In this document: positions 1-44,058 of the stretch, in pieces | Position numbering within the stretch: the first letter of the stretch is position 1 | Layout: each line of letters opens with the position of its first letter | Assembly: GCA_035438705.1 (NCBI GenBank) | Contig: DAORIV010000001.1 | Location: forward strand, 43,593 to 107,592 | From: Parcubacteria group bacterium | GTDB taxonomy: Bacteria > Patescibacteriota > Minisyncoccia > Phycocordibacterales > DATDWN01 | Length of the DNA stretch: 64,000 nt | Reading direction: 5' to 3' | Position numbers and translations under genes: made by a program | The notes under the pieces: model-generated | The model's database searches: none | What the model saw: the letters and a program-made list of their open reading frames with translations, nothing else | Told to the model about the DNA's origin: nothing

Positions 1-860
1 TCACAAATTCTATACAAAAAGTTTTACCAGAACCAGAGTCCAGTTTACTTGGGGGACTACTTTTAGGAAGTAAACAAAGTTTGGGGAAAGAGTTACTTAC
101 AGAGTTTCAACGAACTGGTGTTTCACATATAGTGGTTCTCTCTGGTTACAATATTGCCATTGTTAGTGAAAGTATAATTAATTTTCTAAAATTTTTACCC
201 AAAAATGTTTCTTTTGGTTTTGGTGTATTAGGAATTATTTTATTTACAATGCTTGCAGGTAGTGGTGCCTCTGGAGTCCGAGCTTCTATTATGGTTTTGG
301 TTGCACTATTGGCAAAACATTTTAATCGTGAATACAAAGCAAGTAGAGTTTTGGGTTTTACAATTATTTTAATGCTTGCGCCCAATCCACTTCTATTAGT
401 TTTTGATCCTTCTTTTCAATTATCTATTCTGGCTACGATTGGTATTGTGTATGTTTCACCAATTGTTGAAACTTATTTTGAAGGTGTTACAAATAAATGG
501 GGGATAAGAGAAACTCTATCAACTACTGTGGCCACACAAATAACAGTTCTTCCATTTCTAGTATTCAATACAGGTTTGCTTTCACTTGTTTCACTTCCTG
601 TAAATGTTTTGATTCTTGGAACAATACCCATAACTATGTTTCTCGGATTTACAACAGGACTACTTGGATTAATTAATTTTTATCTTTCAGTCATTCCAGG
701 ATTTTTTACCTACTGGCTTTTATGGTATCAATTAAAAGTAGTTCATTTAGGTTCATCAATTTCATTTGGAGCAATAAATCTTCCATTATTCAATCCAGTA
801 ATAGTAATTTTTATCTACGCATTTATTTTTACTGTTTTATATAAACTAAGGAAAGTTTAA
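1..860 (+). CDS. comEC: ComEC/Rec2 competence-domain protein, 5-prime truncated by the window edge; reading frame is open back to nt 3
   Basis: Polytopic membrane protein with a GVSHIVVLSGYNIAIV motif typical of the ComEC competence domain; no stop upstream in frame; stop at 858-860. Confidence 0.65.
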   Translation, partial: TNSIQKVLPEPESSLLGGLLLGSKQSLGKELLTEFQRTGVSHIVVLSGYNIAIVSESIINFLKFLPKNVSFGFGVLGIILFTMLAGSGASGVRASIMVLVALLAKHFNREYKASRVLGFTIILMLAPNPLLLVFDPSFQLSILATIGIVYVSPIVETYFEGVTNKWGIRETLSTTVATQITVLPFLVFNTGLLSLVSLPVNVLILGTIPITMFLGFTTGLLGLINFYLSVIPGFFTYWLLWYQLKVVHLGSSISFGAINLPLFNPVIVIFIYAFIFTVLYKLRKV

Positions 861-1454
861 CTATTTTACTTCCAAGAAATTTTTTTCTATTACACTCCAG
901 TTTAGGTTTGCGAAGAAATCTTCTACATATTGTTTCTTGCCACTTGGTTGGTAGTCTGCGACATATGAATGTTCCCACATATCAAGAGCAAGTATTGGAG
1001 CGCATCCTTGTAGTTGTCCCAAGTGTTGTTCGTCCACCCATGATGTAAGTAGTTTATTTTCTTTTTTATCAAACCAAAGCATTGCCCAGCCAATACCTCT
1101 AATCATCGCGATTGTTTTAAAGTACTTTAGAAAAGTTTCTACTGTTCCATAATTTTCTTCAATAGCTTTTTTCAGTTGTCCATCGGAAAGGGGGGTAGCT
1201 CCACCTGACAAAGACTCAAAATAGATTTCATGATTTCTCATCCCATTGTACTCAAAACTGAATCGTCTAATTAATTCATTCATTACATAAGTATTTTTCT
1301 CAGCATCCTCCGTCCACAATTCAAATAATTTTTGGTTTACTAAATTAGCATTTTTAACATATCCAGAATACAGCTTTAGATGCTCTTCAATATTTTTTGC
1401 CGAAATACCTTTTAACTCCCCAAGATTAAATTTTTTCTCTTCAAATTGTGCCAT
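861..1454 (-). CDS. sodA: Fe/Mn superoxide dismutase
   Basis: DMWEHSYV metal-binding motif and overall SodA/SodB-like sequence; likely true start at MAQFEEKKF (ATG 1452-1454). Confidence 0.85.
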   Translation of the reverse strand: MAQFEEKKFNLGELKGISAKNIEEHLKLYSGYVKNANLVNQKLFELWTEDAEKNTYVMNELIRRFSFEYNGMRNHEIYFESLSGGATPLSDGQLKKAIEENYGTVETFLKYFKTIAMIRGIGWAMLWFDKKENKLLTSWVDEQHLGQLQGCAPILALDMWEHSYVADYQPSGKKQYVEDFFANLNWSVIEKNFLEVK

Positions 1455-1492
1455 GTTTAGTTTTATATTTATTAATATGTATACTATATCAC

Positions 1493-2395
1493 ATGGAGGA
1501 AGTCTCATTTTATAGGAAGTATTTAAAGTGGTATTTTATTTTAGGTCTACTGGTTATAGTAATCCTTCTTTTATATGCAGTATTTTTTAAAAACACTGAG
1601 GGGGTTTTGAAATTCACCATTATGGATGTGGGGCAAGGGGATAGTATATATATCGAGTCTCCAACAGGAGTCCAGATAATTGTAGATGGTGGTCCTGGTA
1701 ATAATCTTTTAAAAGAAATACCAAAAGTTTTGCCATGGTATGACAGAAGTGTGGATATGATTTTTGTGACCAATCCTGATAGTGATCATTATGAAGGGTT
1801 TATTAAGTTTTTAGACAAGTATTCAGTTGGGGGCCTCGTGGAATCCGGAACAACAAATAGTTATAGTGCTTTTGTGGTTTTTCAGGAAAAGATAAAAGAA
1901 AAAGGTATTACAAAAACTCTAGCTCGTAGAGGGCTGACAATAGATATAGGTGGAGGAGCATATATTCAGATACTTTTTCCAGATAGAAATGTTTCTGAGG
2001 TCAGTCCAAACACAGGCTCAATTGTAATGAAGCTTGTATATGGAGACACTTCAGTTTTGCTACAAGGTGATTCTGTTGCAAGTATTGAGCAATACCTATT
2101 AGAAATTGATGGCGATTATTTAAATAGTGATATTTTAAAAGTGGGGCATCATGGTTCCAAGACTAGCAGTGTAAAAGAGTATGTTGAAAAAGTGTCACCA
2201 GACTATGCTGTTATTTCTGCGGGTTCGGATAATAGTTACGGGCATCCACATAAAGAAGTTATCGAGACGTTAAGAGATTTGAACATTAAAATAATAACAA
2301 CATGCAATAATGGTGCTATATATTTTGAATCAGATGGTAAAGATTTTGTTTTAAAAAATAGAAATACAGAAGAGGTTGAAGTGGGTTGCAAATAA
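1493..2395 (+). CDS. ComEC-type metallo-beta-lactamase domain protein with N-terminal TM helix (the ComEC C-terminal module as a separate ORF)
   Basis: FTIMDVGQGDSIYIE ... VGHHGS motifs typical of the ComEC MBL domain; ATG at 1493 within the GTG-initiated ORF 1448. Confidence 0.7.
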   Translation: MEEVSFYRKYLKWYFILGLLVIVILLLYAVFFKNTEGVLKFTIMDVGQGDSIYIESPTGVQIIVDGGPGNNLLKEIPKVLPWYDRSVDMIFVTNPDSDHYEGFIKFLDKYSVGGLVESGTTNSYSAFVVFQEKIKEKGITKTLARRGLTIDIGGGAYIQILFPDRNVSEVSPNTGSIVMKLVYGDTSVLLQGDSVASIEQYLLEIDGDYLNSDILKVGHHGSKTSSVKEYVEKVSPDYAVISAGSDNSYGHPHKEVIETLRDLNIKIITTCNNGAIYFESDGKDFVLKNRNTEEVEVGCK

Positions 2396-2403
2396 TTGAC
2401 TAA

Positions 2404-2655
2404 ATGACAAAAAATGTTATTGTGTGTTTGGAGGGTATTCATTTGGCGTACGAACTCAGGTACAGGGTAGCGGGTGAGAGTGTGATGAGTGGTATCGAGA
2501 AGTTGTCTGGGAGTCACGACTCAGCACTCGCACAAGCAAAACATCTGGCACAGAATCTTGCCTTTTCACCGAACAATCTCTCGGATTTCACTTTCTGTGG
2601 TCCAAACGGAGAAAGGATCCCGATCCAAGTGACCAGAGAAAGAGTTCCAGGGTAA
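2404..2655 (+). CDS. hypothetical 83-aa protein in a conspicuously GC-rich (~50%) segment; could instead be a structured RNA
   Basis: ORF fills the whole GC-rich island, starts 9 nt after the ComEC-MBL stop, ends just before the terminator hairpin. Confidence 0.3.
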   Translation: MTKNVIVCLEGIHLAYELRYRVAGESVMSGIEKLSGSHDSALAQAKHLAQNLAFSPNNLSDFTFCGPNGERIPIQVTRERVPG

Positions 2656-2657
2656 TA

Positions 2658-2697
2658 CAAAACGACCGGTTCCATTAGGACCCGGTCGTTTTTAGTT
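2658..2697. terminator. bidirectional rho-independent terminator (ACGACCGG-loop-CCGGTCGT, A-run before, T-run after)
   Basis: perfect 8-bp stem with flanking A/T runs between convergent genes. Confidence 0.6.
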
Positions 2698-2706
2698 TTG
2701 TATAAA

Positions 2707-2949
2707 CTATACTATTCCTGCTTTATGGAGAGTTGCGTAAGCCCCGTTCTTTTGAATGGTTTTTATTCCTTTTGCAGATAGTGTTAAAGTCACTGACTTT
2801 TTAAGTTCAGGTATGTATATTCTCTTTTTTTGAAGGTTAGGATATCTTCTTCTGATACCAGTTGGGTTAAACTGGGTTGCACGAGTTCTGTTAGAGTATC
2901 CTCCTCCTAATTTAGACGTCTTTCCTGTAATGTCGCATACTTTTGCCAT
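2707..2949 (-). CDS. rpmB: 50S ribosomal protein L28
   Basis: MAKVCDITGK... 80 aa, L28-like. Confidence 0.8.
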   Translation of the reverse strand: MAKVCDITGKTSKLGGGYSNRTRATQFNPTGIRRRYPNLQKKRIYIPELKKSVTLTLSAKGIKTIQKNGAYATLHKAGIV

Positions 2950-2981
2950 AGTGTGGAATATGTTAGCATATTATCTACATA

Positions 2982-3596
2982 ATGCAAATAGATTTCATAT
3001 TCTCAATAGTAATATTAATATTTTCCGTAGTTGTTCATGAGGTGGCTCATGGCTATATGGCGTATATGCTAGGGGACAACACAGCTAAATATGAAGGTAG
3101 ATTAAATCTCAATCCACTGAACCATTTAGAACTTTTTGGTTCATTTTTATTGCCAGTTGCCTCATATTTTCTAGGAGGTTTCATTATCGGTTGGGCAAAA
3201 CCAGTGCCATTTAACCCATATAATCTAAGGGACCAAAAATGGGGTGAAGCTAAGGTTGCAATGGCAGGACCTCTTTCAAATATACTAATAGCTCTATTTT
3301 TCGGATTACTAATACGCTTCGGTATCCTCACTTCACTAGGAGAATCCTTTTTATATATAGGGACAATGATTGTGTTTATTAATCTTGTACTTGCTACATT
3401 TAATTTAATCCCGATACCTCCACTAGATGGCTCGAAAATACTGTTTTCATTTTTACCGTATAGTAAAAACAACATAAGAGACTGGATGGAACAGAATGGT
3501 ATTTTCCTCATGTTGTTTTTTGTATTTTTCTTGTGGAAGTTTATTGTGCCTATTGTTTACTGGGAATTCATACTCATTACCGGTTTGAGTATATAA
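2982..3596 (+). CDS. M50 family (site-2 protease-like) zinc metalloprotease
   Basis: HEVAHG (HExxH) in a TM helix, polytopic membrane protein of 204 aa. Confidence 0.7.
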   Translation: MQIDFIFSIVILIFSVVVHEVAHGYMAYMLGDNTAKYEGRLNLNPLNHLELFGSFLLPVASYFLGGFIIGWAKPVPFNPYNLRDQKWGEAKVAMAGPLSNILIALFFGLLIRFGILTSLGESFLYIGTMIVFINLVLATFNLIPIPPLDGSKILFSFLPYSKNNIRDWMEQNGIFLMLFFVFFLWKFIVPIVYWEFILITGLSI

Positions 3597-3616
3597 ATTG
3601 ATATATAGAAGAACAG

Positions 3617-3645
3617 TTGCATTTTTCTCAAGGATATATTAGAGT
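3617..3645 (+). promoter_or_regulatory. candidate promoter TTGCAT-17-TAGAGT ending 9 nt before the rpsL ATG
   Basis: -35/-10 hexamers with 17-bp spacer. Confidence 0.3.
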
Positions 3646-3654
3646 AACCCGTAC

Positions 3655-4068
3655 ATGTCAACGATAAATCAATTGGTTAGAAGAAGAAGAAAGAATGTTA
3701 AAACAAAGCCGAAGGCCGTGGCTCTTACTCGTGGTTTCAATAACCTTACAAACAGACCTGTATTTTATCCTGCACCTTTTAAAAGAGGTGTGTGTACAAA
3801 GGTGACTACAAAAACTCCAAAGAAACCTAACTCAGCTATTCGAAAGATTGCGAGAGTCAGACTTACAAATGGTATGGAAGTAACAGCATATATTCCTGGA
3901 ATGGGACACAACCTGCAAGAACACTCAGTTGTTCTACTTAGAGGTGGAAAGGTTAAAGACGTTGGCGTTAGATACACTATAGTTAGAGGTATGCTAGATG
4001 CTACAGGAGTAGAGAAGAGAATGAAGGGTCGTTCAAGATACGGTGCAAAGAGACCAAAAGCTAAATAA
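3655..4068 (+). CDS. rpsL: 30S ribosomal protein S12
   Basis: [10 protein letters not shown]..., [29 protein letters not shown] hallmark. Confidence 0.95.
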
Positions 4069-4079
4069 TTTAAAAACAA

Positions 4080-4550
4080 ATGCGAAGAAAAGTTACAAAT
4101 AGAAATATAGTTGGACCAGATAGTAAATACAACTCAGAAAAGGTTGGTAAATTTGTTAATTACATAATGTGGAGAGGTCAAAAAGAAACAGCAAGAGGTA
4201 TTGTTTATGAGGCAATGGATATAGTAAAGGATACTGCCAAAGTAGAGGATCCGATGGAAGTTTTTGATACAGCCTTGAAAAACTCCGGACCACTTACAGA
4301 AGTAAGAAGTAGAAGAGTTGGAGGTGCTAACTACCAAATTCCGAGAGAAGTAAGACCAGAAAGAAGAACTTTCCTTGCTATGAAATGGATTATAGAAGCA
4401 GCAAGAGATGGAAAGGGAGCTCCTATGGCAAAAAGACTAGCTGATGAAATACTACTAGCAGCTAAAAACGAAGGTAAGGCGGTGAAGAAGAGAGAAGATA
4501 CACATAAGATGGCAGAAGCTAACAAAGCTTTCGCACACCTTGCATGGTAA
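4080..4550 (+). CDS. rpsG: 30S ribosomal protein S7
   Basis: S7 family sequence, 156 aa, directly downstream of rpsL. Confidence 0.95.
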   Translation: MRRKVTNRNIVGPDSKYNSEKVGKFVNYIMWRGQKETARGIVYEAMDIVKDTAKVEDPMEVFDTALKNSGPLTEVRSRRVGGANYQIPREVRPERRTFLAMKWIIEAARDGKGAPMAKRLADEILLAAKNEGKAVKKREDTHKMAEANKAFAHLAW

Positions 4551-4552
4551 AA

Positions 4553-4578
4553 GAAAATCCCCTGAAGGGGATTTTTTA
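4553..4578 (+). terminator. rho-independent terminator (AAATCCCC-GAA-GGGGATTTTTT)
   Basis: hairpin plus T-run after rpsG. Confidence 0.6.
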
Positions 4579-4597
4579 TAATGAAACTTTGCAATAA

Positions 4598-4628
4598 AAA
4601 CAAAGGCCTCATGACGAGGCCTTTTGTA
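4598..4628. terminator. bidirectional terminator (AGGCCTC-ATGAC-GAGGCCT flanked by A-run and T-run)
   Basis: hairpin located between rpsG (+) and the 3-prime end of minus-strand ORF 4630..4860. Confidence 0.55.
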
Positions 4629-4629
4629 A

Positions 4630-4860
4630 CTATTGTTCTGGTGGAAATTCGATCTGTTCGACCGGTTTCCATTCAGCGAGTTCACGAGTCAGAACATGAC
4701 CTTTCCTTTCTCCTTCTTTTGCGACAACAGTTATGGTAACTGTCATGCCTCTCGGCGTAAATGTTGCCGAAACAGGGTTGAATAGGATGAGGTTTCTGGT
4801 GACACCACTGTTACGAGCCCCACCAGCACGTCGTACAATTTCGGGGATAGTTGCTTTCAA
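4630..4860 (-). CDS. hypothetical 76-aa protein, antisense insertion in str operon, GC-richer than surroundings
   Basis: only ORF in a 450-bp gap between rpsG and fusA; ends at bidirectional terminator. Confidence 0.4.
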   Translation of the reverse strand: MKATIPEIVRRAGGARNSGVTRNLILFNPVSATFTPRGMTVTITVVAKEGERKGHVLTRELAEWKPVEQIEFPPEQ

Positions 4861-4903
4861 GTTTCCTCCGTCTTTTATGGATTTTTACATATGATAAATT
4901 CAA

Positions 4904-4932
4904 TTGCAATATGGGTGTTTTTAGTATATAGT
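4904..4932 (+). promoter_or_regulatory. candidate promoter TTGCAA-17-TATAGT upstream of fusA
   Basis: hexamers with 17-bp spacer. Confidence 0.4.
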
Positions 4933-4944
4933 TTTCGTTGAATT

Positions 4945-4963
4945 ACCCAATTGGGTTTTTTCT
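4945..4963 (+). promoter_or_regulatory. palindrome ACCCAATTGGGT followed by T-run in fusA leader (attenuator-like)
   Basis: perfect 12-nt palindrome plus TTTTTTCTTT about 40 nt before the fusA ATG. Confidence 0.35.
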
Positions 4964-4998
4964 TTACTTTAGTAAAATTAATAATTATAAATTTATTT

Positions 4999-7140
4999 AT
5001 GAATCGCGATTATACATTAGATAAGGTTAGAAATTTTGGGATCATTGCTCACATTGATGCAGGTAAAACTACTACATCAGAACGTGTACTTTTCTACACA
5101 GGAATGACGCACAAAATTGGTGAAGTGCATGAGGGAGAAACAGTTACTGACTGGATGGAGCAGGAGCGTGAAAGAGGAATTACGATCACGGCCGCTGCTA
5201 TTACTTGTTTCTGGAATCCAACATACATGCCTAAGGGCCAAAGACCTGAGTACCGTTTCAACATTATTGATACTCCAGGTCACATTGATTTTACAGCAGA
5301 AGTAAAGAGATCTCTTCGAGTGCTAGACGGTGCAGTGGTTGTGTTTGACGGAGTTGCTGGGGTAGAACCGCAGTCAGAAACTAACTGGAGATATGCTGAT
5401 GATGGAAATGTTCCAAGAATTTGTTTTATCAATAAACTAGATAGAACAGGAGCATCTTTTGAAAGAAGTTACGCATCTATTTTAGACAGACTTACAAAAA
5501 ATGCTGTAAGAGTTCAAATACCAATTGGACTAGAAGAAAACTTCCAGGGAGTTATTGATCTTTTGAAAATGAAAGCATTCTACTTTGAGGGTAATATGGG
5601 TATGAACATTCGTGAGGAAGAAATTCCAGCAGAATTTCTGGAGGAGGCTAAAAAATATAGAGCTGAACTTGTTGAAAAAATTGTAGAACAAGATGATGCT
5701 TTGATGTCAGCATATCTAGATGGAAAGGAGCCTTCATTTGAGGATATGAAGAAAACTTTAAGAGCAGCTACTCTTAAGGTAAAACTTATTCCTGTTTTCG
5801 CTGGCTCAGCATTGAAAAACAAAGGTGTACAACTTGTACTGGATGGTGTTGTTGATTATCTACCAAGTCCTATTGATGTTCCGCCAGTTCACGGTATTGA
5901 TCCAAAAACAAATGCAGAAATATTTAGAAACTCATCTGATACAGAACCTTTTGCTGCTCTTGCTTTCAAACTTCAAAACGATCCATTCGTAGGACAACTT
6001 ACTTTCTTCAGAGTTTATTCAGGAAGTATAGAAGCTGGTACATACATATATAATGCAACTACAGGAGAGAAAGAAAGACTAGGTCGTATTGTGCGATTGC
6101 AAGCTGACAAACGTGAAGAAGTTAAAAAAGTTTTCGCAGGAGAAATCGCTGCAGCTGTAGGACTAAAGTCTGCGAAAACTTCTCATACACTTTGTGATGA
6201 AAACAATCCTATAATTCTAGATCCAATCAAGTTCGTAGCTCCTGTGGTGTCTCTACGTATTGAACCAAAAACTAAAGCAGACCAAGAAAAAATGGGTATG
6301 GCTTTGAAGAAACTTTCTGATGAAGATCCAACTTTCGTGATCTCTTCAAACACAGATACTGGTGAATCAATTATTTCAGGAATGGGTGAGCTACACCTTG
6401 AAATCATGGTTGATCGTATGAAAAGAGAGTTTGGTGTAGAAGTAAATGTTGGTAAGCCACAAGTTGCATATAGAGAAACTATTCTTGGAGAGGCAGAGGC
6501 TGAACACAAATACATCAAGCAAACTGGAGGTAAGGGTCAATACGGTCACGTTAAACTTACAATTAAGCCAATGCAAGCTATTGAAGAGGGAGAAAAGATT
6601 CCTAAAAATGTTAAAAGATATGAAGATTTTGAATTCATCGATAACATTAAAGGAGGAGTTATCCCACAAGAATTTATTCCAGCTGTTGAAAAGGGAGTGT
6701 ATGAAGCTATGGAAAGAGGAATTGTTGCTGGTTATAAAATGGTAAATATTTCATGTGATCTGACTTTCGGTTCATACCACGATGTGGATTCATCTGAAAT
6801 CGCATACAAAATTGCAGCTTCACAAGCTTTCCAAGAAGCAGCTAAAAAGGCAAGACCAGTTATTCTCGAGCCTATCATGAAAGTTGAAGCTATAATGCCA
6901 GAGCAATTCATGGGAGACGTAACAGGTTCACTTTCAGGTAAAAGAGGACAAATAGAAGGAATGGCAGAGAGAGGAATGCTAAGAGTTATTCATGCAAAAG
7001 TTCCTCTATCTGAAATGTTTGGTTATACAACTGATATTAGATCAATGACACAAGGAAGAGGAAGTGTGCAAATGGAATTTGATCACTATGAAGTGGTACC
7101 ACCTAACGTAGAGAAGCAAATTGTTGAATCAAGAAAATAA
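4999..7140 (+). CDS. fusA: elongation factor G
   Basis: [10 protein letters not shown]-domain, full EF-G architecture; ATG at 4999 ([15 protein letters not shown]) inside the longer predicted ORF. Confidence 0.95.
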
Positions 7141-7218: not shown

Positions 7219-7247
7219 TTGATACTAAAATTCTTAAGATATATAAT
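7219..7247 (+). promoter_or_regulatory. promoter TTGATA-17-TATAAT ending 7 nt before the ATG at 7255 (leaderless arrangement)
   Basis: consensus-like hexamers, 17-bp spacer. Confidence 0.5.
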
Positions 7248-7254
7248 ATGTGTT

Positions 7255-10200
7255 ATGAGTCTCTCTACTTCTGAAGATTATACTCCACATAGTGGTAATG
7301 AAAGAGTGATTGATCTAGATCATCTAGATGATTTGCCATTAAATGTAAAACAAGATGATAAAGATGTTTTGGGTGATTTTGATATCTTACATAAACAACT
7401 AGACCCTGAAGAAAGAAAATCCGCAGTCGTACATGATTTTTCTGCATATAAAAAACCAACAGAAATAATTGAAGGACCAGTTTCAGAATCTATTGACGGT
7501 TTAGATATCGAAGATTTGAGAACTAAAATTAATTCTAATTTAGAAGATAATAATTTTGATGCTGCATACAATATAATTCAAAAAATTGACAGTGAAAGTG
7601 TTTTACATGCTGTTTTAAGTGAAGCTATCACTTTTCTCATAAGAAAAAAAGAATTTTCAGTTGCAAAGAAATTTGTGCGACTTATTCATAACATGGACGT
7701 GTACACGACTGAACTTAATTACATATTGGAGAAAGAGAGGAATACTGACCCACTTTCAGATTTTAAATCTCAAAATGACGAGGTGGTGGTAAATAAAATT
7801 GAAATTAAAAAACCAAAAAAAGAAGTTGAACCGGTTTTTGCAAATACTGAGAAGGGAAGCATTTCGGATATTAATGAACGCACAATTGACGAGACTAACG
7901 AGGAACTTATCTCTGATGAAGATTATGATAATTTTGTTAAAAAAGGTGATGTCTCAGGCGATATACTGGTAAACATAGCTGACAGAATGGCAAGAGGAGA
8001 AAAAACAACTGAAAGAGAGCTGGCTATTTACCAAACCTTTGGCCCAAAAATTGAATTACTTTTGAGGAATAGAAAAGGTGATAAAGAAGCTGTGGTTGAA
8101 GGGGAAACTGTGGAAACAGAAGACTCACATGAGGTTGTTCCTTCAGTACCAGAAGTAAGTAGTAGTATTGAAAACACCGAAAAACTAGAAAAAGATCTTG
8201 AGGATTCTAGAAAAGAATTTGTTGCACAAGAAGCTGTTTGGAGGGCAAAAAACCAACAAAGTAAAAGTTGGTTTAGAAAAAATGTTCTAGGGAATTTAGG
8301 TATGGACAAACAAACTCCTTTAATCCCAGAACAATCAGAGCTTGAAGAAGCCAGAATTGTGTATAATCTCGCAAAGAAAAATAAACTTAGAGAAACTATA
8401 GGTATGGGGGACATCACTGTCTTATTAGAAGAAACAGAAAGAGAAAGAAAGACTCTCGAATCTTTAAAGTCTAGTTATTCACCAAAAGTTATTAAAGAGT
8501 CCCAACTTAATAGAGATATAAGAACTGGTTTTTTGGGACTTAATTCAAAAGAAGAAGATGGGGTTGTGTACGAAGTGGAAAAGGGAGTGTTTGCAGAAAA
8601 GTTTGAATCTATGTCCCAAAAAGCCATGGATAAATGGTCTAAACTTCCTAAGCCAGTTCAGATAGCTACAAGTACAGCACTTGTTACTGGAACAAGCTTT
8701 ACATTTGGTTTAGCTGCAGCAGCAGGCCCTTTGGGTTATGCAGGATATAGAGTTGCAAAAAGTGCACTATTTGGAGGAGTAGTAGCTCAACCACTTGGAA
8801 AATTTGTTGACAATATACACAATAGAAAAAATAAAGCTTCAGAAGAAGAAAGTCTGGAAGAATTTTCAGAGGGGATAAATATAGATAATTTTGAAGAAAA
8901 AGAAGCAGAAAGAATGGCTCGAGATGAAAAGATGGTGGATGAAAAGAAAAAGCAGAGATTTGTAAAGGCAATGACAAAAGTTGCTGCGGGAGGAATAGTA
9001 TCTGCTGGAATGGAAATGAGCGGTGCATCTAGTTTACTTTTTGATAAGGGAGACATAGACCTTCCTGGAAAAGGCACACTAAATGTTCCAAATGATTTCG
9101 GAGATGTAGATAAAAATTTAGATAAATTAGAAAAATTCAGACTAAATGCAAAAGAAGTTTTACCTACAGATGATAAATTAGATAACCTTCAGGAGTTTAA
9201 GCCTGCAGTTTCAAGTAATTTGGATACAACACAAGTAGTAAATGAAGCACCTTCAGACCTAATTATCCAGGATATTCATAATCTAAAGGCACAGATAATG
9301 TCACAGTATGGGGGAGAGGTACCAGATAGTCTAAAGCCAATCATGGAAAAAACTCCAAAAGAATTAATAAAAATATTTGATTTCAATAATCCAGGTAATA
9401 CTGATTTTAAACCTGGTGTAGATACTGAGGATTTAACTATAGATAGTAATGGAAATGTTTATTATGTACACCAAGATGGAAGCAGGCAAACTCTTTTTGA
9501 TTCACAAAAAGGAAAATTTTACCGATTTGATGGCACTGAAGCTGAAAAAACTATTTCTAGTATAGGAACTGATGGTTCAGAGATTTATCCAAATGGTCAG
9601 ATAGGAGATAAAGTTTATTCCAAACTAGATTTTGGAGGAAATAAGATTTTGACACCAGATCCTGTTGTTCAGACTGTTGGAACAGAAGTGCTGGAGGGTG
9701 ATCCAATTTTCAAAACTGAAGCTGTCTCTGTTTTGGATGTGAAAGATACCACCGAAGAAGAAGTAGCAAATAACACAGTTTCTCACACAGAACTTTCACA
9801 GGGTAAATCTGTAGATGTATTCAGAATGGGAGAAGATAAAATTGTTTCATATGATGGGGCAAGAATTGGTCAGGAGGTATTACAAAATGGTAAAAAAACT
9901 CTAGTTCTTGATGATACTTACCAAGACGGTGAACAGTATAGAAGTACAAGAGAAGCTTTTTCAAAAGCATTTGAGGCAAATGCAACAGTGGAAAACGTTG
10001 GTACGAATCCAATAGCAGAATCTTTTGAAGGTGGTAAAATATATATTACATACAACATTCCAAACGATCCTAATTCAGTTAGAGTTTATTTAAATGGTAA
10101 AGAGATAGCAGTTGGAGATACTACAGTCGTTGATAGTAAGGGAATTCCAAAGATAAAAATGCATGGCAATTTAAAAGGGGGTTGGTTTCTTGTCGACAAT

Positions 10201-10269
10201 GCGTACGAGAGGGCTTTCAAGCACATCGATAAGTTGATAAAAGCTGGCACTTTTAATTTTAAGAATTAA
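7255..10269 (+). CDS. large (~1004 aa) highly acidic hypothetical protein with central hydrophobic segment, inserted between fusA and tuf
   Basis: long uninterrupted ORF, D/E-rich, putative TM pair near residues 470-520; no recognisable family. Confidence 0.6.
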   Translation: MSLSTSEDYTPHSGNERVIDLDHLDDLPLNVKQDDKDVLGDFDILHKQLDPEERKSAVVHDFSAYKKPTEIIEGPVSESIDGLDIEDLRTKINSNLEDNNFDAAYNIIQKIDSESVLHAVLSEAITFLIRKKEFSVAKKFVRLIHNMDVYTTELNYILEKERNTDPLSDFKSQNDEVVVNKIEIKKPKKEVEPVFANTEKGSISDINERTIDETNEELISDEDYDNFVKKGDVSGDILVNIADRMARGEKTTERELAIYQTFGPKIELLLRNRKGDKEAVVEGETVETEDSHEVVPSVPEVSSSIENTEKLEKDLEDSRKEFVAQEAVWRAKNQQSKSWFRKNVLGNLGMDKQTPLIPEQSELEEARIVYNLAKKNKLRETIGMGDITVLLEETERERKTLESLKSSYSPKVIKESQLNRDIRTGFLGLNSKEEDGVVYEVEKGVFAEKFESMSQKAMDKWSKLPKPVQIATSTALVTGTSFTFGLAAAAGPLGYAGYRVAKSALFGGVVAQPLGKFVDNIHNRKNKASEEESLEEFSEGINIDNFEEKEAERMARDEKMVDEKKKQRFVKAMTKVAAGGIVSAGMEMSGASSLLFDKGDIDLPGKGTLNVPNDFGDVDKNLDKLEKFRLNAKEVLPTDDKLDNLQEFKPAVSSNLDTTQVVNEAPSDLIIQDIHNLKAQIMSQYGGEVPDSLKPIMEKTPKELIKIFDFNNPGNTDFKPGVDTEDLTIDSNGNVYYVHQDGSRQTLFDSQKGKFYRFDGTEAEKTISSIGTDGSEIYPNGQIGDKVYSKLDFGGNKILTPDPVVQTVGTEVLEGDPIFKTEAVSVLDVKDTTEEEVANNTVSHTELSQGKSVDVFRMGEDKIVSYDGARIGQEVLQNGKKTLVLDDTYQDGEQYRSTREAFSKAFEANATVENVGTNPIAESFEGGKIYITYNIPNDPNSVRVYLNGKEIAVGDTTVVDSKGIPKIKMHGNLKGGWFLVDNAYERAFKHIDKLIKAGTFNFKN

Positions 10270-25574: not shown

Positions 25575-25970
25575 ATGAACAAAAGACTTTTTCGAAATAC
25601 TGCTATTTTGTTTTTTATAATTGGAGGTTCTAACTATTTAGGTAATAAACTGTATTTATATTGGACTACTTGGTGGCACGATATGATAATGCATTTTATT
25701 GCGGGTGTAGTGGTAGCAATGACATCTATTTTGTTCTATCAATTATTCTTTAAAAAATCAGAATGGTCTAAAAGTAAACTAGTCATGTTTTCTGTGGCAG
25801 TTACTATGATCGTCGGTTTGCTTTGGGAGTATTTTGAACTTTATTTTGAGATAACATCATTTGCTGACGGCTTGTCTTTCTGGACTGATACTTTGTCAGA
25901 TTTATTTCTGGATACTGTAGGAGGTTATCTGGGTGCTTTATATTCTATTAAAATATCAAAAAATGAGTAA
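25575..25970 (+). CDS. hypothetical small polytopic membrane protein
   Basis: 131 aa, 3-4 predicted TM helices. Confidence 0.5.
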   Translation: MNKRLFRNTAILFFIIGGSNYLGNKLYLYWTTWWHDMIMHFIAGVVVAMTSILFYQLFFKKSEWSKSKLVMFSVAVTMIVGLLWEYFELYFEITSFADGLSFWTDTLSDLFLDTVGGYLGALYSIKISKNE

Positions 25971-27336
25971 ATTACAAATTACATTCTATTCTGGTGTTGG
26001 AACAGTAACTGGCGCGAATTTTTTACTGGAAAGCTTGAGAACAAGAATATTAGTTGATTGTGGCTTAATACAGGGAACTCCGGATTCATACATTTTAAAT
26101 AAAAAATCTTTTGAATATGATCCAAAATCTGTAGATTATTTATTTATAACCCATGCACATATGGATCACATCGGTAGGGTGTGTAAGCTAGTTAGAGAGG
26201 GGTTTAGTGGAACTATTTATTCTACAGAAGAAACAAAAAGTTTGGCGAATGTAATGATAGCTGATGCCCTGAAGGTTATGAGTATGAAAGAAAAAGATCT
26301 AAATGCTGAAGTAAAAGAGGAGCCACTATATACATTGAATGATTTTAATAAAACCATGGCATTATGGAGAACTTTGCCATATTACAAAAAAACTAAAATC
26401 AACAATGAGTTTGAAGTTTTTCTAAAGGATGCTGGACATATACTTGGATCAAGTATGTATGAGTTCTTTTTTGAGGGCAAGAAAATTGTTTTTACTGGAG
26501 ATTCAGGCAATTCTCCGGCCCCACTTTTGAAAAATACAGATAGTATTACCGATGCCGATTTTCTTATAGTTGATAGTGTTTATGGAGATAGAAATCATGA
26601 AGATAAGGAAGTTAGAGATGAGAGGTTTAAAGAAGTTCTTTTAGATACAGTAAAAAGGGGAGGGGCATTGGTTATTCCAGCTTTTTCTATTGAAAGAACT
26701 CAAGTGGTTTTGTATATTCTTAATAATTTAATTGAAGAAAAACAAATACCATCAATTCCAGTTTTTCTAGATTCTCCATTGGCACTAAAGGTGACTGATA
26801 TTTATAAGCATTTTACAAAAGATTTTAATAAAAATGTTAAAGAAGAAATATCTTCTGGAGACAATATATTTAATTTCCCAAAGTTAAATATAATCCACAG
26901 TAAAGAGGAGTCGAATGAGATATTTAAAACTCCTAATCCCAAAATTATTATTGCTGGAAGTGGAATGTCTTCTGGTGGAAGAGTGGTTGGTCACGAAATG
27001 CAGTTTTTGCCAGATCCAAATTCAACCATTTTATTAATGGGTTACCAGGCTGTAGGTACTTTAGGCAGAAGAATTCAAGAAAAGCCTTCGTATGTTGAAA
27101 TAAATGGTCAAAATATACCTGTAAAAGCAAGAATAGAGAATATTACAGGTTACTCATCTCATAAAGATTCAGATGGTATTGTGGATATGGTTTCAAATAC
27201 AGCAAATACAGTTAAGAAAGTGTTCGTGGTAATGGGGGAGCCAAAATCTGCTTTGTTTCTAGCACAAAGATTGAGAGATGAGTTGGGGGTTAGTGTAACA
27301 TACCCAGAGCAAGGCATAAACTACAAACTATTTTAA
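25963..27336 (+). CDS. MBL-fold beta-CASP family RNA-metabolising hydrolase (RNase J / CPSF73-like)
   Basis: FITHAHMDHIG metal-binding motif, beta-CASP-like length; start at MSKLQITFYSG overlaps the upstream gene by 8 nt. Confidence 0.75.
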   Translation: MSKLQITFYSGVGTVTGANFLLESLRTRILVDCGLIQGTPDSYILNKKSFEYDPKSVDYLFITHAHMDHIGRVCKLVREGFSGTIYSTEETKSLANVMIADALKVMSMKEKDLNAEVKEEPLYTLNDFNKTMALWRTLPYYKKTKINNEFEVFLKDAGHILGSSMYEFFFEGKKIVFTGDSGNSPAPLLKNTDSITDADFLIVDSVYGDRNHEDKEVRDERFKEVLLDTVKRGGALVIPAFSIERTQVVLYILNNLIEEKQIPSIPVFLDSPLALKVTDIYKHFTKDFNKNVKEEISSGDNIFNFPKLNIIHSKEESNEIFKTPNPKIIIAGSGMSSGGRVVGHEMQFLPDPNSTILLMGYQAVGTLGRRIQEKPSYVEINGQNIPVKARIENITGYSSHKDSDGIVDMVSNTANTVKKVFVVMGEPKSALFLAQRLRDELGVSVTYPEQGINYKLF

Positions 27337-31581: not shown

Positions 31582-31616
31582 AAAATAAAACCACCTCTAC
31601 GGTGGTTTTATTTTTG
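31581..31616. terminator. bidirectional terminator AAAACCACC-TCTA-CGGTGGTTTTATTTTT
   Basis: identical core to the 29215 terminator; flanked by convergent genes. Confidence 0.6.
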
Positions 31617-32654
31617 GATGTGTTGAGTGATGCTGTAAATTGGTGAGATTATTGATATGGAGACGAACCCGATTATAATACCTACAATTATCATCATGAT
31701 TGGCTCAATTAGACTCGAGATATTTTTGGTGAATTCATCTATTTCCTGTTCATAATTTTTTGAGACGTAAATCAAAGATTCCGAAAGATTCCCGCTTTTT
31801 TCACCAGATGAAATTAATGCTGTCATTTCGTGAGGGAATAAAAAATTATTTTTTTGAGTATAAGAAGATAGTTGTTCGCCTTTTTCTGATATAGAAAGTA
31901 ATTTCTTTAGTTCTTTTTTGTATATGATATTTTGAGTGGTCCTTTCGGTTACAAGTATGCCTTCACTAAGAGACATACCACTCTGGAGTAGAACCCCGAG
32001 AGTCCTTGTTATGTTGCTTAATATGTATTTTTTTATAACATCACCTATAACAGGTGTAGATAGTGTTTTGTAGAAAGTAAAATATCTCACTCTTTTGTTG
32101 TTTTTAAGTATATATAATAATCCCAAGATAATTAATATTGTTAAGAGTAACAATATTAACCAATTATTTAGCACAAAACTACTAGTGTAGATTAGTATTT
32201 TTGTTGATGTCGGTATCTCAATGTTCATAGTTTTAAAAACCGGGGTAATTTTGGGAAATAAGTATACTATTAGAAAAATAGTAATACACAGTGTAGATAA
32301 ACCGATAACTATTGGATAAATAAGAGAGTTTATTAATTTTTTTCTGATCAAGTTTTTCTTTGTGATTTCCTCTGTGAGATATTCAAGATTTTCACTTAAG
32401 GTTCCACTTGATTCTCCATAATCAATAATATTTATACTAAACTCATTAAATACTTTTGGAAACCTAGCAAGACTTTTTGATAATTTTTTACCATTAGATA
32501 TGTCGGTGATTAGATGATTAATAATGGTTGAATGTTTTTTAGTAGACTGTTTTTGTATAGTACTTAAACTATCTATCAAACCCAAACCAGCTTTTGTAAG
32601 AAAAGTGAGTCTTTTGAAAAAAAATATCTGGTCACTATTTTTCATATTATTCAT
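31608..32654 (-). CDS. GspF/PilC-family platform protein, short (ComGB-like)
   Basis: T2SSF-like domains, 3 TM segments, 348 aa. Confidence 0.7.
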   Translation of the reverse strand: MNNMKNSDQIFFFKRLTFLTKAGLGLIDSLSTIQKQSTKKHSTIINHLITDISNGKKLSKSLARFPKVFNEFSINIIDYGESSGTLSENLEYLTEEITKKNLIRKKLINSLIYPIVIGLSTLCITIFLIVYLFPKITPVFKTMNIEIPTSTKILIYTSSFVLNNWLILLLLTILIILGLLYILKNNKRVRYFTFYKTLSTPVIGDVIKKYILSNITRTLGVLLQSGMSLSEGILVTERTTQNIIYKKELKKLLSISEKGEQLSSYTQKNNFLFPHEMTALISSGEKSGNLSESLIYVSKNYEQEIDEFTKNISSLIEPIMMIIVGIIIGFVSISIISPIYSITQHIQK

Positions 32655-43137: not shown

Positions 43138-43230
43138 TGGCGGAGCCGGATGGATTCGAACCATCGGTACCTTATTAAAGGGTACACCTCTTTAGCAAAG
43201 AGGCACGTTAGACCACTCTGACACGGCTCC
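43138..43230 (-). tRNA. tRNA-Ser (anticodon GCU), class II with long variable arm, CCA encoded
   Basis: GGAGCCG acceptor, anticodon loop TTGCTAA, T-arm GATGGTTCGAATCCATC, 3-prime CGGCTCCGCCA. Confidence 0.85.
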
Positions 43231-43257
43231 AATAAAATAACATTCAACATGCTTTCT

Positions 43258-43386
43258 TTTTAGCAAAGAGGCACGTTAGGTCAGGAATAGTTTTTTTTAA
43301 AAACTTTCCCGACCCGGACTCGCGTCTAGACGCTCCGTCTCTAAATTACTATCCCATAGTAATTTAGCACTCTGACACGGCTCCAA
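43258..43386 (-). repeat. partial duplicate of the tRNA-Ser 5-prime half (positions ~1-38) interrupted in the D-loop by an ~80-bp insert made of two perfect palindromes
   Basis: GGAGCCGTGTCAGAGTG...[CTAAATTACTAT-GGG-ATAGTAATTTAG ; GCGTCTAGACGC]...CTAACGTGCCTCTTTGCTAAA matches the intact tRNA, then diverges. Confidence 0.7.
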
Positions 43387-43444
43387 TTAATTTCAAGGTT
43401 AGCATATTTTATGTATTAGGTATATTATAGCGCACGGAGGACTT

Positions 43445-43894
43445 ATGCCAGATAGACACGGTTACACCGTTGAAGAATTTGCTCTTTTACTTTCTGTTGG
43501 TGAGTGTACTGTCTACAGATGGATTTACGAGGACACTATCCTGTACTTTAATTCTCGCATACCAAAGAAATATGCAAATAAAATAATAAAGCTTTGGTCA
43601 AAAACATGTACACCTTCTGAATTTTCAAGGCACCTTGGAGTCAGTCCTTCCAAGGTAGACATACTGATTAAAAAAGGAAAACTTCGAACTATTCGAGTGG
43701 TCAGAAAACCTCGGGTTTTTCTAAGAGATCTGGAGAAAATCAAAAATGATAAAAATCTGGTACAAAAGACAGATGTAATTAACAAAAATAAAATAGGTTT
43801 TGCTAGATATTCAAAAAAAAGAAAAACAGCAATTGCTCTATTGGGCTGTTATTCTCCAAATAGAAAAAAGCGGGGTAAAAGAGATATATTTTAA
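43445..43894 (+). CDS. small DNA-binding protein with two HTH (excisionase/MerR-like HTH_17) motifs
   Basis: YTVEEFALLLSVGECTVYRWI and SEFSRHLGVSPSKVDILIKKGKL helix-turn-helix signatures. Confidence 0.5.
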   Translation: MPDRHGYTVEEFALLLSVGECTVYRWIYEDTILYFNSRIPKKYANKIIKLWSKTCTPSEFSRHLGVSPSKVDILIKKGKLRTIRVVRKPRVFLRDLEKIKNDKNLVQKTDVINKNKIGFARYSKKRKTAIALLGCYSPNRKKRGKRDIF

Positions 43895-43896
43895 TT

Positions 43897-43929
43897 AAGG
43901 CGCCCGTCATTACTACGGGCGCCTGTTCT
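43897..43929 (+). terminator. terminator GGCGCCCGT-CATTACT-ACGGGCGCC + T-rich tail
   Basis: 9-bp GC-rich stem after the HTH gene. Confidence 0.55.
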
Positions 43930-44055: not shown

Positions 44056-44058
44056 CAT

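Follow-up and report, generated by a model that had tools for sequence, protein, structure and literature searches.

A likely two-subunit ComEC with an antisense superoxide dismutase gene between its channel and nuclease genes in a Parcubacteria group bacterium

Canonical ComEC/Rec2 (B. subtilis; Neomoorella/Moorella, PDB 30bt and 9ic4) is a single chain. Cryo-EM analysis showed that it has 11 TM helices and periplasmic OB and MBL domains, that TM4–9 form the channel, and that TM10 and TM11 are peripheral (PMC13539106). In the same structure, TM10 and TM11 are joined by a short cytoplasmic helix, TM11 is mobile, and the MBL domain is carried on a flexible linker and positioned by a small OB–MBL interface in the full-length protein (PMC13539106). 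Motif II of the MBL domain has been defined as H-x-D-x-D-H (PMC12455585, PMC8579336). About half of all ComEC proteins have been scored as lacking a nuclease domain, and disposal of the non-transported strand in those cases is a stated open question (PMC8579336). In the CPR (Patescibacteria), ComEC is nearly universal and the ComEC–MBL fusion is essentially absent (Meheust et al. 2019, PMC6744442), while ComEC-dependent competence has been demonstrated in another CPR phylum (PMC10633639). In the literature that we searched, no earlier description of a split ComEC was found; the absence of the fusion in CPR noted by Meheust 2019 is the nearest.

We analyzed a stretch of 64,000 nucleotides from a Parcubacteria group bacterium (hereafter the window). 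The locus shares with canonical ComEC three modules in the same order. However, they are encoded here in two polypeptides, with an antisense sodA between them and with a candidate promoter region belonging to the nuclease gene. The features are as follows.

3..860, + strand: ComEC channel gene, 3′ part, 285 codons plus TAA, with its start upstream of the window
861..1454, − strand: sodA-like Fe/Mn superoxide dismutase gene, 197 aa, based on Pfam and alignment with a solved Fe-SOD
1455..1492, unstranded: divergent intergenic region of 38 bp between the sodA ATG and the MBL ATG
1493..2395, + strand: ComEC nuclease piece, 300 aa (ATG 1493, TAA 2395), consisting of a TM11-homologous helix, a linker and the MBL domain
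1532..1591, + strand: membrane-anchor codons, residues 14–33, WYFILGLLVIVILLLYAVFF, based on hydropathy, the AF2 model and the ComEC alignment
1772..1789, + strand: MBL motif II N-P-D-S-D-H, residues 94–99, with Asn for the first His of H-x-D-x-D-H
2404..2655, + strand: small conserved ORF, 83 aa (or ~69 aa from TTG 2447), based on codon-position-biased substitutions
2662..2693, unstranded: hairpin ACGACCGG ... CCGGTCGT with T-runs flanking on both strands, based on a terminator scan and conservation

The ORF map of the window confirmed the layout proposed in a sequence-only reading. As that reading had placed it, the competence-domain ORF ends at 860; on the + strand, frame 3 runs without a stop from the edge of the window to the TAA at 858–860. 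The complete antisense Fe/Mn superoxide dismutase gene that it had put at 861–1454 with zero gap was likewise found, both by ORF coordinates and by Pfam: its stop codon (cta at 861–863, TAG on the − strand) directly abuts the channel TAA. Thus, sodA converges tail-to-tail on the channel gene and diverges head-to-head from the MBL gene, and the two ComEC halves are 632 bp apart with the antisense gene within. Identical MBL and SOD proteins were present on at least 23 independently assembled contigs (NCBI, JGI, ENA, Logan), and the gene order was the same in all six places examined (the channel gene of L001 is frameshifted), indicating that the layout is not an assembly artefact. The type IV pilus genes pilB and pilC and a pilT-like gene are located in the same window.

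Both halves were then compared with domain models and solved structures. The channel piece matched, over window 3–857, positions 1–268 of the 270 of Pfam Competence PF03772 (E 8.5e-44, 150.4 bits; cut-off 23) and scored 59.2 bits against TIGR00360 ComEC_N-term (cut-off 36.5), and the channel half aligned with residues 8–474 of the solved ComEC 30bt_A (E 1.8e-25). The full-length channel gene was taken from contigs with 4 differences from the window in 2395 bases (L002:7911-9368); there it encodes 485 aa and carries both PF13567 and PF03772, that is, TM1–3, the OB fold (DUF4131, PF13567) and the Competence domain through TM10. Its C-terminus, VIVIFIYAFIFTVLYKLRKV, is a hydrophobic helix followed by a basic tail. 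The MBL piece matched Pfam Lactamase_B (E 1.5e-12), and its best NCBIfam model was TIGR00361 ComEC_Rec2 (positions 423–663 of 663, E 8e-34); it aligned with residues 510–791 of 30bt_A (E 1.4e-33). The AF2 model of this piece (pLDDT 86.9) had a helix at residues 4–31, and its best Foldseek match was the crystal structure of a ComEC MBL domain, 9ic4 (TM 0.87, rmsd 2.3 Å). TIGR00361, the solved ComEC and the AF2 helix together bear out the earlier assignment of 1493–2395 as a ComEC-type MBL ORF with its own N-terminal TM helix. Hydropathy peaked at residues 9–33, with 19-residue Kyte-Doolittle windows of up to 2.95, and the anchor segment aligned with the helix preceding the MBL domain in the solved ComEC. 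Three basic residues (R8, K9 and K12) lie ahead of the anchor residues 14–33; by the positive-inside rule, the nuclease piece is predicted to be oriented N-in, C-out.

As grounds for its own refutation, the sequence-only reading had named the case of two unrelated genes, for example another permease and a generic MBL hydrolase; there would then be no ComEC kinship. Pfam alone gives the third ORF only the broad Lactamase_B, and the ORF has a weaker match to the B3-like beta-lactamase model blaAHM (E 2.4e-21, well short of its cut-off), both of which fit such a pair. However, ComEC is the best match in NCBIfam, among PDB sequences and by fold, the first ORF contains a full-length Competence domain, and both halves are collinear on one solved ComEC chain, so that we give this explanation almost no credence. 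ComEC identity of both halves is the result on which Pfam, NCBIfam, solved structures and predicted fold agree, at E-values far too low for chance matches. Neither half reaches the TIGR00361 equivalog cut-off of 190.05 (58.9 and 116.8 bits), and two ORFs are found here in place of the one-polypeptide ComEC/Rec2 architecture.

Placed on the 801-aa ComEC, the halves are collinear (485 + 300 = 785 aa), with nothing missing or duplicated. Because they align to residues 8–474 and 510–791, the break lies in the cytoplasmic TM10–TM11 loop, and because cryo-EM shows a mobile TM11 and a flexible linker, it falls at the most separable part of the protein. All three genes showed dN/dS of 0.06–0.2. The value was ~0.15 for the channel half (0.15–0.22 in four comparisons, with dS near saturation), 0.06–0.18 for the MBL gene (0.10 at dS ~0.45) and 0.07–0.11 for sodA (0.07 at dS ~0.45). 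We consider it likely that the locus encodes a functional two-subunit ComEC, which arose by fission at the TM10–TM11 loop with a later sodA insertion and which supplies its nuclease in trans. Subunit 1 (485 aa) would comprise TM1–3, the OB fold on the outside and the Competence channel as far as TM10, and would end in the cytoplasm. Subunit 2 would start in the cytoplasm, cross the membrane once via the TM11 counterpart and expose its MBL nuclease, Mn-dependent and of the ComEC type, at the outer surface. This second subunit would dock non-covalently on the first and degrade the DNA strand that is not transported, as its partner strand passes through the channel. The word functional is suggested here by conservation. 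The proposed association of the subunits in the membrane is in keeping with the linkage of the halves in 66/76 split loci, the TM11 homologue and the architecture of full-length ComEC, and their membrane topology is likewise a prediction.

The earlier reading had left two outcomes: a ComEC that functions in two pieces, or a gene that the insertion of sodA had disrupted. Conserved intact ORFs, the low dN/dS and the retention of nearly all metal ligands support the former, and the latter was not borne out as stated, since 18 distant CPR loci are split without sodA. A recent insertion that broke a normal comEC and left the halves as decaying pseudogene fragments would account for the bare layout, in which an antisense gene lies exactly between the halves with zero gap. 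Nevertheless, both ORFs are intact down to ~40% identity in ~40 species with the same layout, purifying selection of the above strength acts on genes whose ligands are conserved, the split occurs without sodA in other CPR lineages, and the sodA composition is normal. This explanation is exceedingly improbable, and the two-gene ComEC looks like a variant of the known ComEC system, not a broken gene.

The metal ligands of the nuclease were also analyzed. The conserved MBL ligands are D65, D96, D98, H99, N173, D193, H219, H220 and H251, and N94, D96, D98 and H99 were invariant in 19 relatives. The D-x-D-H of motif II and the motif I, III, IV and V ligands are the same as in canonical ComEC; the first residue of motif II, His in canonical ComEC, is Asn here. 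The first motif II position was Asn in 33/40 loci of the sodA-containing clade, and His in 35/35 alignable sequences from 36 other split loci sampled. The same Asn is found in S. pneumoniae ComEC, whose MBL domain is suspected to be inactive (PMC8579336). In that protein, the fused MBL domain is probably inactive with three ligand changes, whereas one ligand is changed here and the others are intact; the present domain, with Asn at the first motif II position, may retain nuclease activity.

To place the locus among its relatives, 97 loci were collected using sequence similarity to this MBL together with two peptide patterns, and the locus frequencies given below are therefore not unbiased. Nearly all of the 120 closest MBL homologues listed, and nearly all of the best 150 of the 50%-identity cluster representatives, were stand-alone proteins of roughly 270–325 aa. 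The comparison of orthologues bore out the separation of the halves: in the CPR sampled they are separate with or without sodA, and the eight fused relatives in the sample are all non-CPR by record title. The three-gene layout was present in ~40 Parcubacteria/Paceibacteria species, down to ~40% identity, and antisense sodA lay between the halves in 40 loci, 39 of which fell in one NJ clade. Adjacent split halves without sodA were observed in 18 more distant CPR loci, with proper start codons and overlaps of 4, 16–31 nt and the like. In eight loci, other genes lay between the halves, which sequence motifs suggest to be guanylate-kinase-like, RNase-III-like and methyltransferase-like.

Given the 18 distant CPR loci that are split without sodA, it is most likely that sodA entered the junction of already separate genes and that the split predates the insertion. 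A fused ancestral gene would have split at the TM10–TM11 loop early in CPR, with the halves at first adjacent and translationally coupled. An antisense sodA would later have been inserted between them in one large Paceibacteria clade including this organism, after which the nuclease gene would have been transcribed from its own promoter, head-to-head with sodA. The two-gene state could instead be ancestral, and canonical ComEC a fusion of the channel gene with the adjacent anchored MBL gene; this alternative concerns origin only and leaves the present function the same. Gene fusions are generally commoner than fissions, which counts for it, as do the ATGA-type overlapping junctions of L076, L077 and L091, which could be fused by a single indel. 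In an NJ tree of the MBL domains, the fused sequences nest among the split ones and form no outgroup, which would also count for it; the tree, based on about 270 residues, has unreliable deep branching and no power at such depth, and we rejected it as a polariser of fission versus fusion. CPR may branch within Terrabacteria near Chloroflexota, and if so, a single fission is more parsimonious. Furthermore, Pimentel and Zhang 2018 inferred a Competence-only ancestor with repeated gain of Lactamase_B, which favors an ancestral two-gene state, whereas fused ComEC spans many phyla, among them Chloroflexota (L071, L075, L094), Firmicutes, Bacteroidota and Margulisiibacteriota, and the split is essentially confined to CPR (PMC6744442), which speaks against it. 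On balance, we judge an ancestral two-gene state to be rather improbable and keep to the fission.

The channel gene was located upstream, on the same strand and within 6 kb in 66/76 split loci, which are mostly CPR by record title. In the other 10, no channel gene was found within ~1–6 kb upstream, a range set by contig extent, and profile HMMs of the channel half and of SOD, iterated over the full set of 97 loci, gave no extra copies at these MBL-only loci. Channel–MBL linkage is therefore not obligatory. These 10 loci would suit a nuclease that became an autonomous surface enzyme after the split, with the channel half working alone like the MBL-less ComEC of H. pylori. Such a nuclease might break down extracellular DNA, so that organisms unable to make nucleotides could scavenge them. 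Also consistent with autonomy, the MBL gene has a promoter-like region and, in many lineages, is parted from the channel gene by an antisense gene or by unrelated ones; ComEC MBL domains are nucleolytic in vitro when isolated (PMC8579336, PMC12455585), and some competent bacteria have MBL-less ComEC (PMC12455585). However, the linkage in 66/76 split loci has lasted through deep divergence, with the orientation unchanged and stop and start codons often overlapping; the anchor is a TM11 homologue, not a generic signal anchor; and nearness to the OB fold seems to matter. An autonomous nuclease is thus unlikely, though of appreciable weight, and a nuclease subunit that works with the channel is the reading that we prefer.

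Such a pair resembles known systems in several respects. S. pneumoniae similarly uses ComEC as a channel together with a separate membrane-anchored nuclease on the outer face for the non-transported strand (PMC8579336, PMC12455585). The trans nuclease of S. pneumoniae is EndA, whereas here it would be a ComEC MBL module with its own TM11. EndA has a nuclease fold unrelated to the ComEC MBL domain. Taken alone, the channel gene would be scored as 'DC' (DUF4131 plus Competence), like MBL-less ComEC (H. pylori; the 'DC' and 'C' profiles of Pimentel and Zhang 2018), although the MBL module is not lost here but encoded 632 bp downstream. Because surveys score domains per polypeptide, a separate MBL gene is invisible to them. 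A further likeness is with the adjacent two-gene ComEC of other CPR lineages, for example Sungbacteria (L043, L045, L052) and Kerfeldbacteria (L091), which has orthologous halves and the same break point: the channel gene ends after TM10 with a basic tail, and in the MBL protein a short basic N-terminus leads into a TM helix. Those loci differ from ours in that the halves are adjacent, often with a 4–31 nt overlap, without sodA and with His in motif II; since the genes are adjacent and often overlapping, they are probably translationally coupled.

In the CPR sampled, the nuclease domain is not lost but appears as a separate TM11-plus-MBL protein, and CPR make up a very large part of bacterial diversity; per-polypeptide domain surveys overcount nuclease-domain 'losses'. 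As a natural experiment, the split suggests that ComEC can be divided at the TM10–TM11 loop, which fits the mobility of TM11 and the flexible linker observed by cryo-EM. It also points to a soluble or single-pass nuclease subunit, whose expression and testing should be simpler than those of full-length ComEC.

The gene between the halves was examined as well. sodA matched Sod_Fe_C (PF02777) over positions 2–102 of 102 (E 2.7e-23, 82.4 bits; cut-off 20.9), whereas Sod_Fe_N (PF00081) scored 25.1 bits, just under its cut-off of 27, with a divergent N-terminal hairpin. Its best solved relative was the Fe-SOD 1coj_A (E 9.5e-26; alignment from residue 13), in which the His of 'EEH', the His of 'RNHEIYF' and the Asp and His of 'LDMWEHSY' have matching residues. 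We take these His, His, Asp and His positions to be the metal ligands of Fe/Mn superoxide dismutase. With a full-length C-terminal domain and four conserved ligand positions, but a divergent N-terminal domain, the product is predicted to be a bona fide SOD, although it reached none of the NCBIfam equivalog cut-offs. The check on GC and codon usage of 861–1492 that had been suggested earlier showed no anomaly: sodA has GC 0.343 and GC3 0.284 against 0.353 for the window and resembles its neighbor genes in both GC and codon usage, so the compositional test for recent transfer was negative. sodA is most likely a passenger without a role in DNA uptake, and its insertion is probably a mere quirk of conserved synteny.

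Two −10-like boxes lie in the intergenic region, each 7 nt ahead of an ATG: TATACT (1480–1485, + strand) for the MBL gene and TATAAA (1467 to 1462, − strand) for sodA. In relatives of 57–70% protein identity (L013-L016, L020, L028, L033, L038, L040, L046, L047, L065), a TATACT, TATAAT or TAnnAT box ends ~6–8 nt before the MBL ATG. A consensus promoter scan gave sites no more frequent than in shuffled sequence. Of the divergent promoter region proposed in the sequence-only reading, the conserved −10-like box thus stood, and the consensus scan added nothing to it; because that scan was not above background, the promoter claim is that of the box. No Shine-Dalgarno sequence was found on either side of 1455–1492. 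As proof of a leaderless MBL mRNA, this is weakened by the scarcity of GGAG or GAGG in the genome, which is SD-poor (upstream of 3 of the 32 window genes). Given the background-level scan and this scarcity, we infer, tentatively, that the MBL gene may have its own promoter and a leaderless mRNA. The sodA and MBL start codons are 11–70 bp apart in most sodA loci, and only 14 bp in some. This clade is also the one in which Asn took the place of a His metal ligand of the nuclease. A compact bidirectional promoter might place the external Mn-dependent nuclease under the same control as the Fe/Mn SOD, responsive to metal supply or oxidative stress, for instance, but not tied to the channel. We regard this as quite improbable; if true, the cell could uncouple DNA degradation from import, for example DNA as food versus transformation.

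Two elements follow the MBL gene. The small ORF at 2404..2655 has GC of 0.47 against 0.35 for the window and had no Pfam or Rfam match. Compared with L097, its substitutions numbered 21, 23 and 42 by codon position, showing third-position bias. It is possibly co-transcribed with the MBL gene. Since it is missing in L014 and L015, it is not obligatory to the system. For RNA genes in the GC-rich stretches near the locus, an Rfam scan of the whole window at the gathering threshold, and of 2380–5000 at E up to 1, gave only tRNAs and one sub-threshold chance match. The hairpin at 2662..2693 was kept with compensated changes in L097, L096, L013 and L016, and it is likely a bidirectional terminator that serves both the MBL transcription unit and rpmB (L28), the gene that converges on it.

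The beginning of the window contained three open reading frames (ORFs), which were read as follows.

1–860, + strand (frame 3): 3′ part of the channel gene, comEC-N, uninterrupted from base 1 of the window to the TAA at 858–860; 285 codons
861–1454, − strand: sodA, 197 aa, with its stop codon beginning at base 861, directly after the channel-gene TAA
1493–2395, + strand: metallo-β-lactamase (MBL) ORF, the nuclease gene, 300 aa, with its ATG at 1493, 38 bases past the sodA ATG

The 285 channel codons matched Pfam Competence end to end (model positions 1–268 of 270, E 8.5e-44), and the ORF scored over the cut-off of TIGR00360 ComEC_N-term (NCBIfam). For the sodA product, the Fe/Mn SOD C-terminal domain was a strong Pfam match and the N-terminal hairpin a weak one, and alignment to the solved Fe-SOD 1coj indicated that the His, His, Asp, His ligand positions are kept. 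On the MBL ORF, Pfam detected only the broad Lactamase_B family. The best NCBIfam model was ComEC_Rec2, through its C-terminal 240 positions (E 8e-34), and ComEC chains were the best solved relatives (E 1.4e-33). The AlphaFold2 model of the MBL protein (pLDDT 86.9) showed a long N-terminal helix, residues 4–31, and then the MBL fold, whose closest solved structure was the ComEC β-lactamase-like domain 9ic4 (TM 0.87, rmsd 2.3 Å). The sequence-only reading had described a competence-domain ORF ending at 860, a complete antisense Fe/Mn SOD gene abutting it with zero gap, and an independent ComEC-type MBL ORF with its own N-terminal helix. All three were confirmed, and the profile matches of both halves agree with the ComEC assignment.

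The 5′ part of the channel gene, which lies upstream of the window, was read from contigs that match the window at all but 4 of 2395 bases. The full gene encodes 485 aa, comprising DUF4131 (OB fold) and then Competence. This protein aligned to residues 8–474 of the solved 801-aa ComEC (PDB 30bt_A), and the MBL ORF aligned to residues 510–791 of the same chain; together, the halves (785 residues) were collinear on the solved protein without gap or duplication. Full-length ComEC, as determined by cryo-EM, has 11 TM helices and exposes its OB fold and MBL domain at the outer face (PMC13539106). The channel is built from TM4–9, with TM10 and TM11 at the periphery and a short cytoplasmic helix linking these two; TM11 is mobile, and the MBL domain is carried on a flexible linker, its position set by a small contact surface on the OB fold (PMC13539106). 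Alignment to the solved ComEC located the split between TM10 and TM11. The channel protein ended with a hydrophobic helix and a basic tail, KLRKV, and the MBL protein began with a short basic segment followed by a strongly hydrophobic helix. Judged by the positive-inside rule and homology, these ends agree with a cut in the cytoplasmic loop and with a predicted N-in, C-out anchor, which would hold the MBL domain outside.

Conservation was then analyzed, every sequence in the comparison being a metagenome assembly. At least 23 contigs, obtained from independent samples with different assemblers, encoded an MBL protein and a SOD identical to those of the window. All six places examined showed the same order: recJ, rnhA, comEC-N, sodA (antisense), MBL, rpmB, M50 protease, rpsL, rpsG, and fusA. 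Of the 120 top-ranking homologues listed (identity to the MBL ORF down to 55%), nearly all were stand-alone proteins of ~300 aa belonging to Parcubacteria, Paceibacterota, Minisyncoccia, and Zambryskibacteria. In an exhaustive search with clustering at 50% identity, the best 150 cluster representatives were stand-alone almost throughout. The three-gene layout was kept in relatives at 57–71% identity, some of which carried one or two additional genes separating comEC-N from sodA. Pairwise dN/dS against a relative at dS ~0.45 was 0.10 for MBL and 0.07 for SOD; that of the channel half was ~0.15 (0.15–0.22 in four comparisons with more distant relatives, at dS near saturation). The GC, GC3, and codon usage of sodA were those of the neighboring genes, so the compositional difference for which the sequence-only reading proposed a check did not appear. 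Its second alternative, that sodA had disrupted comEC, also fails for a recent event, which is excluded by the wide conservation, the low dN/dS, and the ordinary composition of sodA. A pseudogene reading of the halves and a pair of unrelated genes were likewise excluded.

In L001, one of a group of nearly identical strains (GCA_964399045.1, contig CAYNPG010000002.1, a public MAG), the channel gene was split over two frames, no recJ was called, and pgk was called short (309 aa vs 377). These defects probably reflect faulty assembly or frameshift errors rather than biology, because all three genes were intact in five other assemblies of the same population.

Relatives, sampled by similarity to the window's MBL, were obtained from a scan of one genome per species (80 loci). 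Classes were assigned by phmmer and profile searches for the channel, SOD, and MBL proteins.

40 loci: antisense sodA upstream of the MBL gene (channel gene off contig in three)
18 loci: channel and MBL genes adjacent on one strand, without sodA
8 loci: other genes between the halves (guanylate-kinase-like, RNase-III-like, methyltransferase-like, AAA ATPase; named from sequence motifs)
10 loci: no channel gene within the upstream flank
8 loci: single fused ORF, 617–870 aa, some cut by contig ends

This comparison answers the question, raised from the sequence, of whether related comEC loci are fused: the eight that are all carry record titles outside CPR (Patescibacteria, including Parcubacteria and Paceibacteria), namely Chloroflexota, Bacteroidota, Lachnoclostridium, Margulisiibacteriota, and Acidiferrum, many record titles looking unreliable (e.g., 'uncultured Candidatus Saccharibacteria'). 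The adjacent class showed proper gene junctions; the stop–start overlap was 4 nt in three lineages, 31 nt in four Sungbacteria-like genomes with a common conserved N-terminus, and 13–25 nt in others. In a neighbor-joining (NJ) tree of MBL domains, 39 of the 40 sodA loci grouped as a single clade lying within split lineages that lack sodA. The simplest scenario has a single fission at the TM10–TM11 loop early in CPR and places the insertion of sodA later, in the ancestor of a large Paceibacteria clade, at a junction that was by then intergenic. This scenario fits a published remark that CPR genomes essentially lack the ComEC-MBL fusion (PMC6744442). That CPR instead keep a pre-fusion two-gene state is improbable in our estimation; the NJ tree does not settle the deep polarity, and we prefer fission because fused ComEC occurs in many phyla, which favors it by parsimony.

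ComEC MBL domains bind two Mn2+ via motif II (H-x-D-x-D-H) and ligands in four other motifs (PMC8579336, PMC12455585). The corresponding element here was as follows.

1772–1789, + strand: motif II of the MBL ORF, N-P-D-S-D-H

In the 19 closest relatives the Asn was invariant, and it was present in 33 of the 40 sodA-clade loci (those with antisense sodA before the MBL gene), the seven basal members having His; His was also found in all 35 alignable sequences from the 36 other split loci. The remaining metal-ligand positions were all conserved. Because the Asn is invariant and all other ligands are intact, a putative altered but functional metal site is suggested. ComEC of S. pneumoniae similarly has Asn at this position but, unlike the window's MBL, two further ligands are changed there (PMC8579336), and the nuclease work is done by a separate protein, EndA (PMC8579336).

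The basal loci with His were L029, L030, L035, L036, L039, L048, and L057. In six of the seven, 0.5–2.9 kb separated sodA from the MBL gene, and in the Asn subclade the two start codons were at most ~150 bp apart in nearly all loci; this coincidence carries no statistical weight because it reflects single correlated transitions. Furthermore, C271 and C299 of the MBL ORF (window 2303–2305 and 2387–2389) were invariant in the 19 closest relatives and absent from most more distant split and fused homologues. They could form a disulfide particular to this lineage; such a bond would suit a location outside the cytoplasm.

We propose that the locus probably encodes a two-subunit ComEC. In this model the OB fold belongs to the channel subunit, on which the nuclease subunit (TM11 plus MBL) would dock from within the membrane, and the docked nuclease would degrade the non-transported strand, like fused ComEC. 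Docking is proposed because the TM11 homologue is retained and because linkage and orientation are conserved in 66 of 76 split loci. The ten unlinked loci and the independent putative promoter of the MBL gene speak for the main rival, an anchored nuclease acting alone, e.g., in nucleotide scavenging, which we regard as a serious but rather unlikely alternative to two subunits. As for sodA, it is most simply a passenger, since it encodes a normal SOD, does not keep a fixed position relative to comEC-N, and belongs to a neighborhood that is syntenic throughout at such depth. The tight head-to-head pairing leaves room for co-regulation of sodA and the nuclease gene, which seems unlikely. The window also encodes the following.

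31608–33867, − strand, and 47761–49482, + strand: type IV pilus genes, pilC (T2SSF), pilT-like ATPase, and pilB with MshEN domain
33943–38799, + strand: 1618-aa protein with a peptidoglycan-binding domain
25933–27336, + strand: β-CASP (RNase J-like) MBL nuclease

The pilus genes would fit a predicted working DNA-uptake apparatus.

No earlier description of a two-gene ComEC was found in the literature searched. Domain surveys count domains per polypeptide and report Lactamase_B 'loss' (Pimentel and Zhang 2018). Some 300-aa MBL proteins were labelled 'competence protein ComEC' in source annotations; therefore, the homology is visible to pipelines. The split ComEC bears on the question of how MBL-less ComEC proteins handle the second strand, and points to an easily testable nuclease subunit.

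Transcription-related features around the MBL gene were as follows.

38 bp between the sodA and MBL ATGs: intergenic region with two −10-like boxes
2404–2655, + strand: small conserved ORF, 83 aa, directly 3′ of the MBL gene
2662–2693: conserved hairpin with T-runs on both strands, common to the convergent rpmB gene

TATACT preceded the MBL ATG by 7 nt, and on the opposite strand TATAAA preceded the sodA ATG by as much. A box resembling TATACT recurred at this spacing from the MBL start in relatives whose proteins are only 57–70% identical, and in some genomes the two ATGs were just 14–21 bp apart. This suggests a putative compact bidirectional promoter with very short or absent leaders. Two results weaken that reading: a consensus promoter scan did not raise the sites above background, and Shine-Dalgarno (SD) sequences were rare in any case, GGAG or GAGG occurring within 20 nt upstream of the start in 3 of the 32 window genes examined. 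The shared divergent promoter region of the sequence-only reading is partly supported, by the conserved −10-like box before the MBL ATG. The channel gene and sodA run toward each other with zero gap, and because no terminator separates them, their transcripts probably overlap. Elsewhere in the window, several starts (e.g., 2982, beside the divergent rpmB, and 60784 and 63185) lay ~6–11 nt after a TATAAT-like box. The genome looks poor in SD sequences overall, and leaderless or short-leader mRNAs, like compact bidirectional promoters, may be common in it.

The 83-aa ORF and the hairpin probably close the MBL transcription unit. The ORF had a GC of 0.47 and a GC3 of 0.48, vs 0.35 for the window, and matched nothing in Pfam or Rfam. 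It was kept as a protein in the relative L097 (differences by codon position 21, 23, 42) and absent from some relatives (L014, L015). It is possibly ~69 aa long, from TTG 2447 after a GGAGG.

After fusA, a 1016-aa ORF (7219–10269, + strand) had no Pfam match, and strains that are otherwise almost identical carried it at different lengths (L001, 1328 aa; L002, 1016 aa; L003 and L005, 1004 aa); its product may be a surface protein that varies from strain to strain. ARAGORN detected a type II tRNA-Ser with anticodon ACT at 43969–44056 (anticodon loop UUACUAA), in which A at position 34 is unusual for serine. It is adjoined by tRNA-Ser(GCT) (43138–43230, − strand), with partial repeats of the 3′ half of the latter at ~43255–43280 and ~43368–43390, and by an ORF (43446–43895) that by eye resembles a helix-turn-helix/excisionase-type protein. 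Taken together, the two tRNA genes, the repeats, and this ORF (43138–44056) may be a remnant of an element integrated at the tRNA gene.
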